From the IMG/VR virus record IMGVR_UViG_2695420685_000013: DNA of 11,844 bases; one strand, given 5' to 3'. Positions 1-3,020 of this stretch are shown here, piece after piece (positions within the stretch are counted from its first letter, which is position 1; every line of letters starts with the position of its first letter). The stretch comes from a virus (taxonomy: Duplodnaviria; Heunggongvirae; Uroviricota; Caudoviricetes). A program made the position numbers and the translations under genes. Under the pieces are notes generated by a model. That model was given only the letters and a program-made list of their open reading frames with translations, made no database searches and was not told the DNA's origin.

Positions 1-605
1 CGGTCCGGCGCGGGGTGTGCGGTGATGTCCACACTCACCGGCTTACCGCTGCCGTTAATCAGGTTCACCGCCGATGTACCTGTCTCCGGCAGGGTCACCT
101 CACGGTCCAGTGTCAGGGTGCGGCTGGCGGCATCAATGGACAGGATGCGTCCGCCGGTCATGGTCCCGGCATAGTCGTTATCACAGATTTCAATAATGTC
201 ACCGGGTGTGTGACGCAGCCCCTGTGACCCGAGCGTGAAATCCACCGTCTGCGTTTCCAGCAGTCCGGTCTTTATCACCCACAGCCCGGCACGGTGGGCC
301 TGACCGCGACTGGTGCAGCCGAACGCATCCATCTTCAGCAGGTTGCGTCCGTAGCGCAGTATGGCTTCCGGGTCTTCCACCAGTTCCGTGGAGGTCTGCC
401 AGCCGTTATGCGGGTCGACGTAACTGACCTCCACCGCAGTATGACGGTCCTTCAGGGCGCTGAAACTGTAGCGGAATCCCACACCTTCATTGTCAGCCAC
501 CACATCACTGTTTGTGTAGGGCCACACCACATCTGACGGACGGTCCTGCACAAACGTCAGCGTCTGCCCGTTCCATACCGGCATACAGCGCCCACTTGTC
601 CACAT
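1..605 (-). pseudogene. J: Host specificity protein J (central tail fibre), downstream portion in a different reading frame from the J start; open to the window edge
   Basis: Hand translation of the minus strand from ~579 downward gives [28 protein letters not shown]..., which continues lambda-J-like sequence but in a frame offset from ORF 505..1488. This frame has a stop at 648-650 upstream and in-frame ATGs at 603-605 and 582-584; no stop seen down to at least position 480. Confidence 0.6.
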
Positions 606-1488
606 CCGCCGCCCCCAGACGTTTTCCCATTCCGTAGCGCGGGTGGGTCAGCATGTCCCACAGGCACCAGGCCGGGTTATTGCTGTATGCCGGTTTCAGG
701 CTGCCGTCCCAGATACCGCTGTAAGTGCGTTTTTCCGGGTCATAGTTTGACGGTACCTGAATGATGCGACCGCGGATATGGTAGTTCACCGTCATCTGCT
801 GGCCACCAAACTGCTCCGCATCCACCTGCAGCCCCACAATCGCCGTGTTCGGGTAGCACTGTTTCACATCGATGATTTCGGTGTATGACGACCAGAGCGT
901 CTTATTCTGCAGCTGGTCCGAGGTGCTGTCCGCCGTCTCCCGGACCATCCGGATGTTAAAAGGACGGGGAGGCAGATTATCCAGAATCACCGACGCCAGA
1001 AACTGCGAGGTGGTCTTGCCGTTAATGGTGACATCATTTTCCGTCACCCAGTTACCGTTACGCTGCAACTGAATCAGCAGTCGGACAGAAGAGGGATTAC
1101 GGTCGCCCTTTGAGGTGGTCTCCAACAGTGACTGCACCCCGAAGGTGACCCGCAGGCGGTCAATATTCGCGGACGTAATGGTGCGCGTCACCGGCTTTGC
1201 CTTCGTCACTTCCACGCCCAGTGCGGTTTCAGCTCCGGAAGACTCAAAGCCTTCAGGTGGTGTCTGCTCCTGCTCCCCGGCGCGCCAGACCGCTGTCACA
1301 CCATGTATCACAGGATTACCGTCCGTGTCCGTCAGCGGAGTTTTGTTCACCAGGATACTCTGCAACCCCTTCACCGGACCTTCAATCGGCCCTTCACCAA
1401 TGGCATCAATCACGCTCATCATCTGCGTGGACTTAAGATTGTCCTTTGCCTCAACCGGCGTGTGCGCCCTGCCGCCACCTTTACCCAT
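505..1488 (-). CDS. J: Host specificity protein J, N-terminal ~327 aa fragment ending at a premature in-frame stop
   Basis: ORF begins [39 protein letters not shown]..., which matches the lambda gpJ N-terminus as I recall it, through ...[15 protein letters not shown]; it then diverges into [25 protein letters not shown] and stops at 505-507. RBS GAGAGG lies 6 nt upstream of the ATG (reverse complement of 1495-1500). Confidence 0.85.
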
Positions 1489-1621
1489 AATGTTCCTCTC
1501 AATTGGTATTATTAATCGCAGTGATAGGATATTGCACAGCTATTGCGCGATATCATCAGAACGCTGTTTGTTACCCTGTAACCAGCAAGCTCAGTCTGTT
1601 AACGGAATTAATGAGGGTTTT

Positions 1622-2149
1622 ATGAAATGTAAAATCATTGCTGCCATTGCCATGCTGACAGCAGCATCATGCGGATACGCAGCAGAACAGGAAGTCCCAA
1701 TGAACCTTGTCAGTGCTGACGGAAAAGAAGTCAGCATTGGAAAAATAACCATTCAGGAGACCCCCTACGGTCTGCTGTTCACACCAGCCCTTCACTCTCT
1801 GTCTGAAGGCATTCATGGTTTTCATGTGCACGAAAAAGGAAATTGCGCCCCGGCACTGAAAGACGGAAAACCGGTCGCAGCATTATCGGCTGGCGGTCAC
1901 TTTGACCCGAAAAACACCGGCAAACATCTTGGCCCCTGGTCTCCGGATGGACACCTGGGCGACCTCCCTGCGCTGTTCGTGACGCATGACGGAAAAGCGA
2001 ACTACCCGGTCCTGGCCCCGAGACTGAACTCATTAAAAGAGATTAAAGGGCGTTCTCTCATGCTTCATGCTGGCGGTGATAACCATCATGACCATCCGGA
2101 GCCCCTGGGCGGTGGTGGTGCGAGAATGGCCTGCGGCATCATTCAATAA
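1622..2149 (+). CDS. sodC: Periplasmic copper/zinc superoxide dismutase (SodC family), phage-borne moron
   Basis: ATG at 1622 is preceded by GAGGG (1613-1617). Product [23 protein letters not shown]... has an N-terminal signal-peptide-like segment, the Cu,Zn-SOD motifs GFHVHE, GGHFDP and HLGDLP, and a C-terminal [12 protein letters not shown] matching Cu/Zn SOD signature 2. Stop TAA at 2147-2149. The six-frame ORF 1115..2149 is an artefactual 5' extension running antisense through J. Confidence 0.92.
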
Positions 2150-2155
2150 TCAGTC

Positions 2156-2184
2156 AGGTAAGGGGCGGGCCCCTTACCTTTATT
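2156..2184 (+). terminator. Rho-independent terminator-like hairpin immediately after sodC
   Basis: AGGTAAGGGGC (2156-2166) pairs with GCCCCTTACCT (2169-2179), followed by TTTATT. Starts 7 nt after the sodC stop. Confidence 0.55.
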
Positions 2185-2297
2185 CCTCAGGACGATAAAT
2201 CCTTTCTCCCTGAAAAGAACGGCACATCCTCCCTCTCTGAGTTAATGTTTTTGTCGTGACATAAGAATAATTCCTTACACTCAATCTTCGTAACGCT

Positions 2298-2340
2298 CCC
2301 GCAGTTCCTGTCCGTGAGCACTGCGGGATTTTTTCGCTTT
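2298..2340 (+). terminator. Second plus-strand terminator-like hairpin with T-tract, abutting the 3' end of gene I
   Basis: CCCGCAGT (2298-2305) pairs with ACTGCGGG (2320-2327) across a 14-nt loop, followed by ATTTTTTCGCTTTT. The orientation fits termination of plus-strand (sodC-direction) transcripts, not the minus-strand tail operon. Confidence 0.4.
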
Positions 2341-3020
2341 TATGCCTGCCGCCCGATAACCACCACCTTCCCGTCACCGCCTTCATCACGGGTACTGATG
2401 TCCTGGGAGATTCGCCGGGAGCCAACCAGCATTTCACCGTAAGGCACCGGCATCGGGTTCCCCTGGGCAATCATGTTATCCAGCGAGGAAAAGTACGTGT
2501 TCTGTCTGCCGTTATCCGTTGCGCGGTAATCCGGTGTTTTTGCCTTCGGGGCCAGCATCTGGGCCACACCGCCCAGAATCATGCTGGCTCCAAGTGAAAA
2601 CAGCATCGTGGTGGCAGAAAAACCACCGGCTGCCAGGGCTGAACCCCATAACGCCATTGATGCCCCGGCAGTGAAGAACGACCCCACGATGGCCGCCGCC
2701 CCCAGCACAATCTGCAGTCCACCCTTTCCGGCCCCGGCCAGTCGCGGCACAATGTGGATGACCGTTCCCTCACCCAGCTGTTCGTGAAGACGGGCGTACA
2801 CCGCCTCCGGTGCCGTGTCATCACCGGCAATACGTATCTGGTACCAGCCTTCGTTCATCTGACGGCGGAATCCCGGCATCTGCATCGACAGGGCACGGAT
2901 GGCTTCCGCTGCCGTGTTCACATACAGGCTGAGGCGGCGGCCAAATCGTTGTAAATCCCCGTGAAGGCAGATACGTGCCAGTGGCGGTGACGCCAGGCTG
3001 AATGCGTTCGTCGTTGCCAT
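2340..3020 (-). CDS. I: Tail tip assembly protein I
   Basis: 226 aa ORF; N-terminus MATTNAFSLASPPLARICLHGDLQRFGRR... and C-terminal region ...NTYFSSLDNMIAQGNPMPVPYGEMLVGSRRISQ resemble lambda gpI as recalled. Position between K and J matches lambda synteny. Confidence 0.9.
   Translation of the reverse strand: MATTNAFSLASPPLARICLHGDLQRFGRRLSLYVNTAAEAIRALSMQMPGFRRQMNEGWYQIRIAGDDTAPEAVYARLHEQLGEGTVIHIVPRLAGAGKGGLQIVLGAAAIVGSFFTAGASMALWGSALAAGGFSATTMLFSLGASMILGGVAQMLAPKAKTPDYRATDNGRQNTYFSSLDNMIAQGNPMPVPYGEMLVGSRRISQDISTRDEGGDGKVVVIGRQA

Follow-up and report, generated by a model that had tools for sequence, protein, structure and literature searches.

The sodCI gene of the Salmonella prophage Gifsy-2 (STM1044) is an established virulence factor. 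It encodes a prophage periplasmic Cu,Zn superoxide dismutase and lies in the tail operon, in opposite orientation to it, between a lom-like gene and L. The sodCIII gene of Salmonella prophage Fels-1 (STM0924) is also in opposite orientation and occupies the slot between tail genes I and J. The SodC-F1/SodC-F2 family of E. coli O157:H7, encoded by prophage Sp10 of strain Sakai and by prophage copies in EDL933, was characterised experimentally by D'Orazio et al. 2008 (PMC2569942). The two proteins are one residue apart, and SodC-F1 is dimeric with an activity of 19380 U/mg (PMC2569942). Under the heading 'Lipid modification signal' the authors described an AASC motif and a cleavage site between residues 20 and 21, and found SodC-F to be in part membrane-associated via this AASC lipobox (PMC2569942). 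SodC-F was made in log phase and anaerobically, independently of rpoS, and was enriched in intracellular bacteria; the chromosomally tagged protein accumulated in uninduced cultures, and the sodC-F promoter fragment that was fused to lacZ comprised the 299 bp upstream (PMC2569942).

A second group of described elements concerns the same part of the tail operon. PasB is a small RNA of EPEC E2348/69 (Pearl Mizrahi et al. 2021, PMC8550237), and EcOnc22, EcOnc23 and EcOnc24 are small RNAs of EHEC Sakai (Tree et al. 2014, PMC4104026). An Hfq-dependent transcript of about 83-85 nt has been reported only for sodC-less EPEC and EHEC copies (PMC8550237; PMC4104026), and no Hfq peak is listed by Tree et al. 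for the Sp10 spacer (PMC4104026).

The stretch of DNA analysed here, called the window throughout, comprises 11,844 nucleotides. We put at roughly 93% the probability that its I-J region represents the sodC-F moron carried by a lambdoid E. coli prophage of the O157:H7/O55:H7 type, working by the mechanism proposed below. The encoded protein is identical over 175 of 175 residues to ECs_1989 of Sp10 in O157:H7 Sakai and to RefSeq WP_000649829.1, and all 851 nucleotides of the I-J spacer (851/851) are identical to those of Sp10. The AASC lipobox, the 20/21 site and the flanking genes are likewise shared with SodC-F1/F2. There is no difference from Sakai Sp10 within the cassette; the differences are SNPs in the flanking I and J and a 140-bp deletion in the J of the window. 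For the head-tail module, the best identity among the complete genomes searched was about 97-98%, and over the whole 11.8 kb no complete E. coli genome reached 99% or more, the best standing at 97-98% in 3-5 pieces. The window is a mosaic, related to prophages of the Sp10 and Sp4 types.

Table 1. Features of the I-J region, in window coordinates.
Feature	Position	Strand	Remarks
Tail-tip/host-specificity gene J, 5' part	1..1488	minus	Pfam FNIII-A_GpJ 2.5e-42
J start codon	1488-1486	minus	
sodC upstream region	1489..1621	plus	39.8% GC
J Shine-Dalgarno GAGAGGA	1494..1500	minus	5 nt before ATG; direct reading
sodC Shine-Dalgarno GAGGG	1613..1617	plus	4 nt before ATG; direct reading
sodC (sodC-F type), 175-aa precursor of predicted periplasmic Cu,Zn superoxide dismutase	1622..2149	plus	
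Signal peptide, aa 1-20	1622..1681	plus	signal peptidase I site YA|A
AASC lipobox, aa 14-17	1661-1672	plus	inside signal peptide
sodC intrinsic terminator	2156..2184	plus	10-bp stem, 6 G-C pairs, loop 4, tail TTTATT
Cassette-specific spacer	2185..2235	plus	site of small-RNA promoter in sodC-less alleles
Resident I-proximal segment	2236..2339	plus	common to sodC-less prophages
PasB-like small-RNA body (candidate)	~2253-2334	plus	antisense to tail operon
Small-RNA terminator	stem 2297-2328, T-run 2329-2334	plus	
I stop codon	2340-2342	minus	
Tail assembly gene I, 226 aa	2340..3020	minus	Pfam Lambda_tail_I 1.5e-16, aa 15-97

The identity of the protein is indicated by several matches. Pfam Sod_Cu (PF00080) was hit at E = 3.9e-32 with 111.9 bits (cut-off 28.9), and the match extended over positions 3-133 of the 133-position profile. 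The NCBIfam SodC equivalog (NF007628) scored 218.4 bits against a cut-off of 165, PHROG 1975 matched as 'superoxide dismutase precursor' in the category moron, and bacterial SodC structures in the PDB were matched at E of about 1e-62. The first-pass annotation had named sodCI, sodCIII and the O157:H7 prophage copies as kin of the gene, and the amino acid identities of 58.8%, 60.5% and 100%, respectively, bear this out. It had also staked the assignment on conserved metal-ligand histidines, all of which were found on alignment. The residues that we take to be the ligands, following standard bovine/bacterial SOD1 numbering, are H68, H70, H93 and H149 for copper and H93, H102, H111 and D114 for zinc, and none of them varies when the protein is aligned to SodCI and SodCIII. 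The same holds for the disulfide C75-C171 and the catalytic arginine R168. The N-terminus carries an export signal, with a hydrophobic core and an A-x-A-like site before residue 21, and this leader is identical to the one analysed experimentally in PMC2569942. The window SodC is, as judged by these motifs and matches, a Cu,Zn superoxide dismutase of the bacterial periplasmic type. Fels-1 SodCIII retains all catalytic residues, but its own signal peptide is unlike that of the window and has no AASC lipobox.

The placement of the gene in reverse orientation between I and J, as first described, was borne out. Both codons that bound the spacer were located, and 851 bp were counted between the J start and the I stop where about 850 had been estimated; the plus-strand frame of 175 codons with its own ribosome-binding site and signal peptide was likewise recovered. 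The overlap of I and K is 103 nt, as in lambda. The statement that I and J are contiguous in lambda did not hold, as a 60-bp gap separates them there, and in sodC-less relatives of the same tail module the I-J spacer is about 238 bp long.

We use the term moron in the sense of Juhala et al. 2000, for which an extra gene between conserved neighbours should be present in some close relatives only, bring its own terminator and a promoter active in the lysogen, and differ in base composition from the genes around it. Among 5426 complete E. coli genomes, 547 hold the sodC allele, counted as at least 80% of positions 1300-2500, in which the annotated sodC is flanked by gpJ and the tail assembly protein; Stx2a phages EH2201 and EH1846 bear it as well. 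Near-identical I and J flanks enclose a spacer allele without sodC in 595 genomes, as well as in Stx2c/Stx1a phages. The cassette is thus polymorphic for presence and absence among related tail modules, and is not carried by all. A factor-independent terminator of its own follows the gene: the hairpin at 2156-2179 (-17.4 kcal/mol) has a T-rich tail on the plus strand only. Read on the minus strand, the same hairpin leads into GACUGA and lacks a U-tract, so it does not serve the late operon as a terminator. A weak minus-strand terminator candidate within sodC (1865 to 1846; 6-bp stem with 3 G-C pairs, loop of 8) was taken as chance. The sodC promoter must lie in the upstream region, within 1489-1621. 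It was not located by a sigma-70 consensus scan of 1300-2500, which returned zero sites, and manual inspection yielded only 8/12 matches (TTGGTA-16-TAGGAT, 1503-1530). A possible PhoP-box-like half-site, TGTTTG, noticed by eye at about 1565-1570 was rejected, having no second half-site and no conservation in Fels-1.

Base composition lends little to the case for horizontal acquisition of the gene itself, for which it had been cited. The sodC frame is 52.8% GC (GC3 50.6%), not in the mid-40s as hand counts had suggested, and falls within the range of 51.9-60.2% spanned by the 14 structural genes of the window (z = -0.96; GC3 z = -1.38). Of the neighbouring tail genes, I is at 60.2% GC and the 5' part of J at 57.4%. 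Only the first 200 bp or so of the insert and the non-coding flanks stand at 40-47% GC, and the 851-bp insert as a whole, at 49.6%, is the lowest stretch of that length in the window.

The insert is composite. Its 104 bp nearest to I, which include the second hairpin, also occur in sodC-less prophages and hence lie outside the cassette. At the other end, the J Shine-Dalgarno falls inside the cassette, and alignment shows a different sequence at that place in the sodC-less allele, which puts the boundary exactly at the J start codon. The true sodC cassette therefore extends over about 1489-2235 (about 750 bp). Of the terminator hairpins that had been assigned downstream of sodC, the first (2156-2179) does serve sodC, but the second (2297-2334) belongs to the resident small-RNA locus. 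In this tail module, the space between I and J has two tenants: a small-RNA locus and an optional sodC cassette.

The resident tenant was compared with PasB, whose coordinates (PMC8550237) were mapped on NC_011601. PasB of E2348/69 lies at the same place as window positions 2253-2334, immediately beyond the stop codon of I and in antisense orientation to the tail genes, and the 3' arm of its terminator, CACTGCGGGATTTTTT, is identical in the window together with the T-run. In the window the body within 2236-2339 leaves 5 nt between its end and the stop codon of I, and the same antisense position after I was found at seven other loci. The body shares 60% identity with PasB of E2348/69 and 93% with the common variant, and it matches the copy in sodC-less Stx2c phages at 100%. 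The PasB-like locus probably belongs to the EcOnc22-24 family. We word this assignment as probable because the coordinate shift between Sakai genome versions was inferred, with calibration at AgvB1 only (about +140 at 1.94 Mb, for a total genome difference of +128). RNAalifold on eight PasB-like variants gave no covariation, a result of little use because the 5' arm of the terminator is put out of register by indels. No Rfam family reached its gathering score anywhere in the window; a sub-threshold STnc400 hit at 2113-2189 (23 bits against 80, E = 0.11) was dismissed as chance, the Gifsy-2 and Fels-1 sodC loci having no such match.

What sets the window apart from the sodC-less alleles is the promoter of this RNA. 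Those alleles bear TTCACA-16-(T/A)ATAAT, with TATAAT in E2348/69 (11/12) and AATAAT in the Stx2c phage (10/12). In the window this sigma-70 promoter is absent and cassette DNA stands in its place: positions 2185-2235 are only 27-35% identical to the sodC-less alleles, and identity rises to 60-100% just downstream. The alignments thus indicate that the sodC cassette has displaced the small-RNA promoter. The segment TGAGTTAAT is retained at 2238-2246 and could act as a cryptic promoter. With its promoter removed, the RNA may be made only by read-through. A specific form of this proposal is that the small RNA of sodC prophages derives from the sodC 3'-UTR, by read-through of a leaky terminator (TTTATT) and processing, under control of the sodC promoter; we regard it as distinctly unlikely. 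Alternatively, the small RNA may simply be silenced in sodC alleles.

If sodC were ancestral in the I-J spacer, the sodC-less spacers, with their small-RNA promoter and sense-strand hairpin, would be replacements or deletion derivatives. The placement and orientation of I-sodC-J are shared with Fels-1 at only 60% amino acid identity (about 65-70% at the nucleotide level), and the same arrangement at such low identity implies that it is old. The typical GC content of the sodC frame among the structural genes of the window would also suit a long residence, and a boundary exactly at the J start with an intact small-RNA body fits a replacement in either direction. On the other hand, sodC is missing from this site in lambda and most relatives, and the small-RNA element is the commoner of the two, being present in 1373 genomes as compared with 547 for sodC. 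A promoter-to-terminator unit is found in seven sodC-less alleles, six of them with the complete small-RNA unit, and is decapitated in the sodC allele, which looks like the derived state. Fels-1, moreover, is without the small-RNA element: its spacer from sodCIII to I is only 53 bp and contains nothing PasB-like, and its non-coding DNA cannot be aligned to the window except in the region of the J ribosome-binding site. Taken together, we consider an ancestral sodC unlikely.

In the mechanism that we propose for the sodC-F moron, the cassette of about 750 bp sits in the I-J spacer, oriented against the late operon; it consists of an upstream regulatory region, a ribosome-binding site, the SodC precursor gene and a strand-specific intrinsic terminator. 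These elements, with their identity, distribution and boundaries, come from the present analysis; activity, expression and localisation are taken from the literature. In the lysogen, the late operon would be silent and sodC would be transcribed from its own promoter. The signal peptide would export the precursor, with partial lipidation at the AASC lipobox, and the dimeric enzyme would dismutate periplasmic superoxide, adding to the resistance of the cell against oxidative stress from outside. In the lytic phase, late transcription antiterminated by Q would run antisense through the cassette to J; as both hairpins are without a U-tract on the minus strand, it should not stop there. The cassette adjoins the resident small-RNA locus, having replaced its promoter. 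Late read-through and the fate of the small RNA are the steps that we infer.

That late transcripts cross antisense sodC to reach J, as the first-pass annotation had pointed out, follows from the layout; the further claim that sodC and J expression would thereby be entangled is conjecture, and has no bearing on this copy, whose J is a pseudogene. One could suppose that the antisense placement is itself functional, with convergent sodC transcription or late antisense RNA regulating J or sodC. To arrive at J, the late transcript does have to traverse 851 bp, including 528 nt in antisense to sodC; the terminators are strand-specific, and the orientation has been kept in Fels-1 and Gifsy-2. However, lying in reverse and ending in a one-way terminator is how a moron ordinarily spares the operon. 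Gifsy-2 sodCI is located elsewhere, between the lom-like gene and L and not in the I-J slot, so there is no specific link to J, and relatives with IS elements or frameshifts in J keep sodC. A regulatory role for the placement is quite improbable.

The disruption of J was seen by alignment to the intact J of Stx2a phage EH2201 and to strain 493/89. A frameshifting deletion of 140 bp, bounded on either side by a copy of the 12-bp repeat GCGCTGTATGCC and with its junction at about 580-591, leaves an open frame only over 505-1488 (327 aa). In the best 12 complete genomes the two-piece matches lie 140 bp further apart, so that the deletion is absent from them. By its reading frame, the J of the window is a pseudogene. 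Because J is frameshifted, the prophage copy is probably defective, and the lytic-phase part of the mechanism may never operate for it. Related prophages also have IS elements or frameshifts in J, with sodC still present. The damaged J and the many IS elements and frameshifts with which related prophages are riddled might suggest that the window sodC, too, is a decaying and non-functional remnant of a defective prophage. Yet the sodC frame is intact, the spacer including its regulatory regions is 100% identical to that of Sakai Sp10, and the sodC-F genes are expressed and active in Sakai (PMC2569942). Defective prophages, moreover, normally keep their cargo genes. We hold decay of this sodC to be extremely improbable, and the sodC-F moron remains our reading of the region.

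Given the complete match of the spacer to Sakai Sp10, the wide distribution and the characterisation of 2008, the sodC moron is already known, and there is nothing new in the gene, its position or its product. Prophage SodC is a recognised lysogenic-conversion factor that aids enteric pathogens against exogenous superoxide, and its presence bears on the virulence profiling of strains. What the present analysis adds is modest and concerns anatomy, namely a two-tenant I-J spacer in which the small-RNA promoter appears to have been displaced by the cassette. If the small RNA were indeed made by read-through from sodC, the locus would show, on a small and testable scale, how a moron can rewire a riboregulator of a phage.

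The head and tail genes of a lambdoid prophage's late operon fill the window, all on the minus strand in the order E, FI, FII, Z, U, V, G, T, H, M, L, K, I, J. The overlap between I and K is 103 nt, exactly lambda's figure. The RefSeq homologue of I is annotated as 193 aa (582 bp). Since the 226-aa ORF in the window holds the complete Pfam Lambda_tail_I domain (aa 15-97) and keeps the lambda-like overlap with K, the shorter start probably truncates the protein. Between I and J lies a gap of 851 bp (1489-2339) with a single convincing ORF, on the plus strand. Its product matches Pfam Sod_Cu over the full domain (3.9e-32), the NCBIfam SodC equivalog (218 bits against a cut-off of 165), PHROG 1975 ('superoxide dismutase precursor', category moron) and solved bacterial periplasmic Cu,Zn superoxide dismutases (E about 1e-62). 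The Cu ligands H68, H70, H93 and H149, the Zn ligands H93, H102, H111 and D114, the C75-C171 disulfide and R168 are all present and invariant in the alignment with Salmonella SodCI and SodCIII. An N-terminal signal peptide is cleaved before AEQ, and an AASC lipobox lies inside the same leader. The sodC moron that the first-pass annotation placed in reverse between I and J is thus borne out, as are its signal peptide, ribosome-binding site and terminator, and the metal-ligand histidines whose lack would have refuted it are present; the second hairpin that it also assigned to the insert belongs to a resident PasB-like small-RNA locus. An Rfam STnc400 hit at 2113-2189 (plus strand), over the 3' end and terminator of sodC, scored 23 bits against a gathering threshold of 80 (E = 0.11) and was judged to be chance.

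Features of the I-J region in the window and of the corresponding hairpin in two comparison loci with sodC-less spacers
Feature	Position	Strand	Details
J start	1488	-	product begins MGKGGG
Tail gene I	2340-3020 (stop 2340, start 3020)	-	226-aa ORF
sodC ORF	1622-2149	+	175 aa
sodC ribosome-binding sequence GAGGG	4 bases upstream of ORF	+	
sodC terminator hairpin	2156-2184	+	10-bp G+C-rich stem, TTTATT tail, -17.4 kcal/mol
Second hairpin with T-run	2297-2334	+	5 nt from I stop codon
PasB-like segment	2236-2339 (small-RNA body about 2253-2334)	+	antisense to tail operon, just after I stop
Sense-strand hairpin, sodC-less spacer	L002 1754 to 1731	-	
Sense-strand hairpin, sodC-less spacer	L008 1631-1654	+	tail-operon sense strand there

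The kinship proposed with the O157:H7 and Salmonella copies was confirmed. The window SodC is identical at 175 of 175 residues to ECs_1989 of prophage Sp10 in E. coli O157:H7 Sakai, and the next relatives among phage records are Fels-1 SodCIII (60.5%) and Gifsy-2 SodCI (58.8%). Whereas sodCIII of Fels-1 occupies the same I-J slot in the same reverse orientation, sodCI of Gifsy-2 has another place in the tail operon, with a lom-like gene on one side and L on the other. In or beside the Fels-1 tail-fibre gene (L006 1-163), Rfam also gives a strong hit (155 bits) for IsrG, an Hfq-binding small RNA; it is unrelated to sodC but is a further case of a small RNA lying within a tail module. In a comparison of 1440-2400, the 851-bp spacer is identical to that of Sp10 at every base, yet the coding sequence of I and J next to it differs by several SNPs, and none of the complete genomes searched reaches 99% identity over the whole window. 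These differences point to a cassette that travels between slightly differing tail backgrounds, that is, to mosaicism. Of 5426 complete E. coli genomes, 547 contain at least 80% of 1300-2500, and among the matches listed sodC is annotated with 'tail assembly protein' on one side and 'gpJ' on the other. The region is also carried by two Stx2a phages, EH2201 and EH1846.

The O157:H7 prophage enzymes SodC-F1/F2 were characterised by D'Orazio et al. 2008 (PMC2569942). They are dimeric, exceed chromosomal SodC in stability and have about three times its activity (19380 vs 6290 U/mg); their expression, in log phase and under anaerobic conditions, does not depend on rpoS; they are enriched in intracellular bacteria and contribute to peroxide resistance; their partition between periplasm and membrane is caused by the same AASC lipobox. 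Expression in the lysogen, activity, localisation and a contribution to peroxide resistance would, on the strength of this literature, extend to the window's enzyme. Given the identity to the Sp10 copy, the distribution and this characterisation, the sodC moron is genuine and was rightly identified, but it is not new: earlier experimental work has described it.

A GC content in the mid-40s had been estimated for sodC, but the ORF has 52.8% GC (GC3 50.6%), within the range of the window's 14 structural genes (51.9-60.2%; z = -0.96 for GC and -1.38 for GC3). A contrast exists only against the immediate neighbours I (60.2%) and J (57.4%). The 851-bp insert is the lowest-GC stretch of its length in the window because its non-coding flanks are AT-rich (upstream 39.8%, I-proximal segment 43.3%). 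Presence/absence polymorphism is better evidence of moron status than GC. Genes I and J, taken to be contiguous in lambda, are 60 bp apart there, and in the sodC-less allele, carried by Stx2c and Stx1a phages and by 595 genomes, the spacer is still about 238 bp. The match between this allele and the window ends precisely at the J start codon, which makes the J Shine-Dalgarno sequence part of the cassette, and the two can be aligned again from 2236. The sodC cassette proper therefore spans about 1489-2235; the size first given for the insert was right, but by this alignment the insert is composite, and 2236-2339, second hairpin included, is resident DNA. In the sodC-less spacers a strong hairpin that resembles a terminator and is tailed by TGTTTTTGTG lies on the late-operon sense strand, about 40 nt upstream of J; the window's sodC allele lacks it.

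The resident segment resembles PasB, an 83-nt Hfq-dependent, Northern-validated small RNA of EPEC E2348/69 (PMC8550237, EPEC-unique small-RNA table), which lies on NC_011601 from 1466343 to 1466261, where it immediately follows the I stop on the strand opposite the tail operon. The 3' arm and T-run of the PasB terminator (CACTGCGGGATTTTTT) are identical to window 2318-2334, and the bodies share 60% identity. The window element is 100% identical to the copy in sodC-less Stx2c phages, and its identity to a variant found in about 650, mostly extraintestinal, E. coli records is 93%. Counted over 5426 E. coli genomes, PasB-like elements are present in 1373, and each locus examined has its copy flanked by the J start and the I stop. 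For Sakai, Tree et al. 2014 reported Hfq-bound peaks in Sp15, Sp14 and Sp11, three homologues named EcOnc22/23/24 (PMC4104026, Table S2), with an RNA of ~85 nt on Northern blots that is destabilised without Hfq and lies antisense to tail genes. These peaks map within I-J spacers. Their coordinates refer to an older Sakai record, and with a shift calibrated at AgvB1 (about +140; total length difference +128) they fall on the PasB-like body. EcOnc22/23/24 are thus probably the PasB-like element, an assignment short of proof that depends on this shift.

Just upstream of the small RNA, the sodC-less allele of E2348/69 has a near-consensus promoter, TTCACA-16-TATAAT (11/12), and that of the Stx2c phage has TTCACA-16-AATAAT (10/12); the (T/A)ATAAT hexamer is kept in seven aligned variants. 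The corresponding stretch of the window is replaced by cassette DNA (27-35% identity), and a promoter scan of 1300-2500 returned no site, so the sodC cassette has decapitated the small-RNA gene. Tree et al. list no Hfq peak at the Sp10 spacer (PMC4104026). The small RNA of the sodC allele may be silent or may arise by read-through of the sodC terminator.

Both hairpins also fold on the minus strand, but neither is followed there by a U-tract, and they are thus one-way terminators against the late operon. From established lambda biology, Q-antiterminated late-promoter transcripts would run antisense through the cassette on their way to J, and these hairpins would not stop them. An entanglement of sodC and J expression had been read from this layout, which is all that supports it; the position of sodCI in Gifsy-2 argues against a specific sodC-J link, and J in the window is a pseudogene. 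Two copies of a 12-bp direct repeat, GCGCTGTATGCC, bound a 140-bp deletion that shifts the J frame at about 580-591 (minus strand), with a stop at 505-507, leaving an open frame at 505-1488 and a product of 327 aa. The deletion is not present in the 12 best-matching complete genomes. The window prophage is probably defective, though the deletion may instead be an artefact of assembly. Relatives have other J lesions, a frameshift or an IS3 insertion. The closely related sodC prophages of strains 2014C-3061 and 493/89 are degraded, with IS3 in J and the tape-measure gene and a frameshifted J; they carry the type III effector cargo nleA, espS and tccP2 beside the tail fibres, and sodC is intact. 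Prophages bearing sodC are often defective while sodC remains intact.

Since Fels-1 shares the I-sodC-J layout at 60% identity, the arrangement is old. The sodC-less spacers may be the derived state. The small-RNA unit, however, is intact from promoter to terminator in the sodC-less alleles and decapitated in the window, which favours the sodC allele as the one derived within this E. coli tail lineage. The word sodC is absent from the main text of the preprint by Zhu, Shabalina and Storz on Pas small-RNA distribution. The one small addition made here is the sodC cassette beside a PasB-like small-RNA locus, together with that locus's promoter loss.
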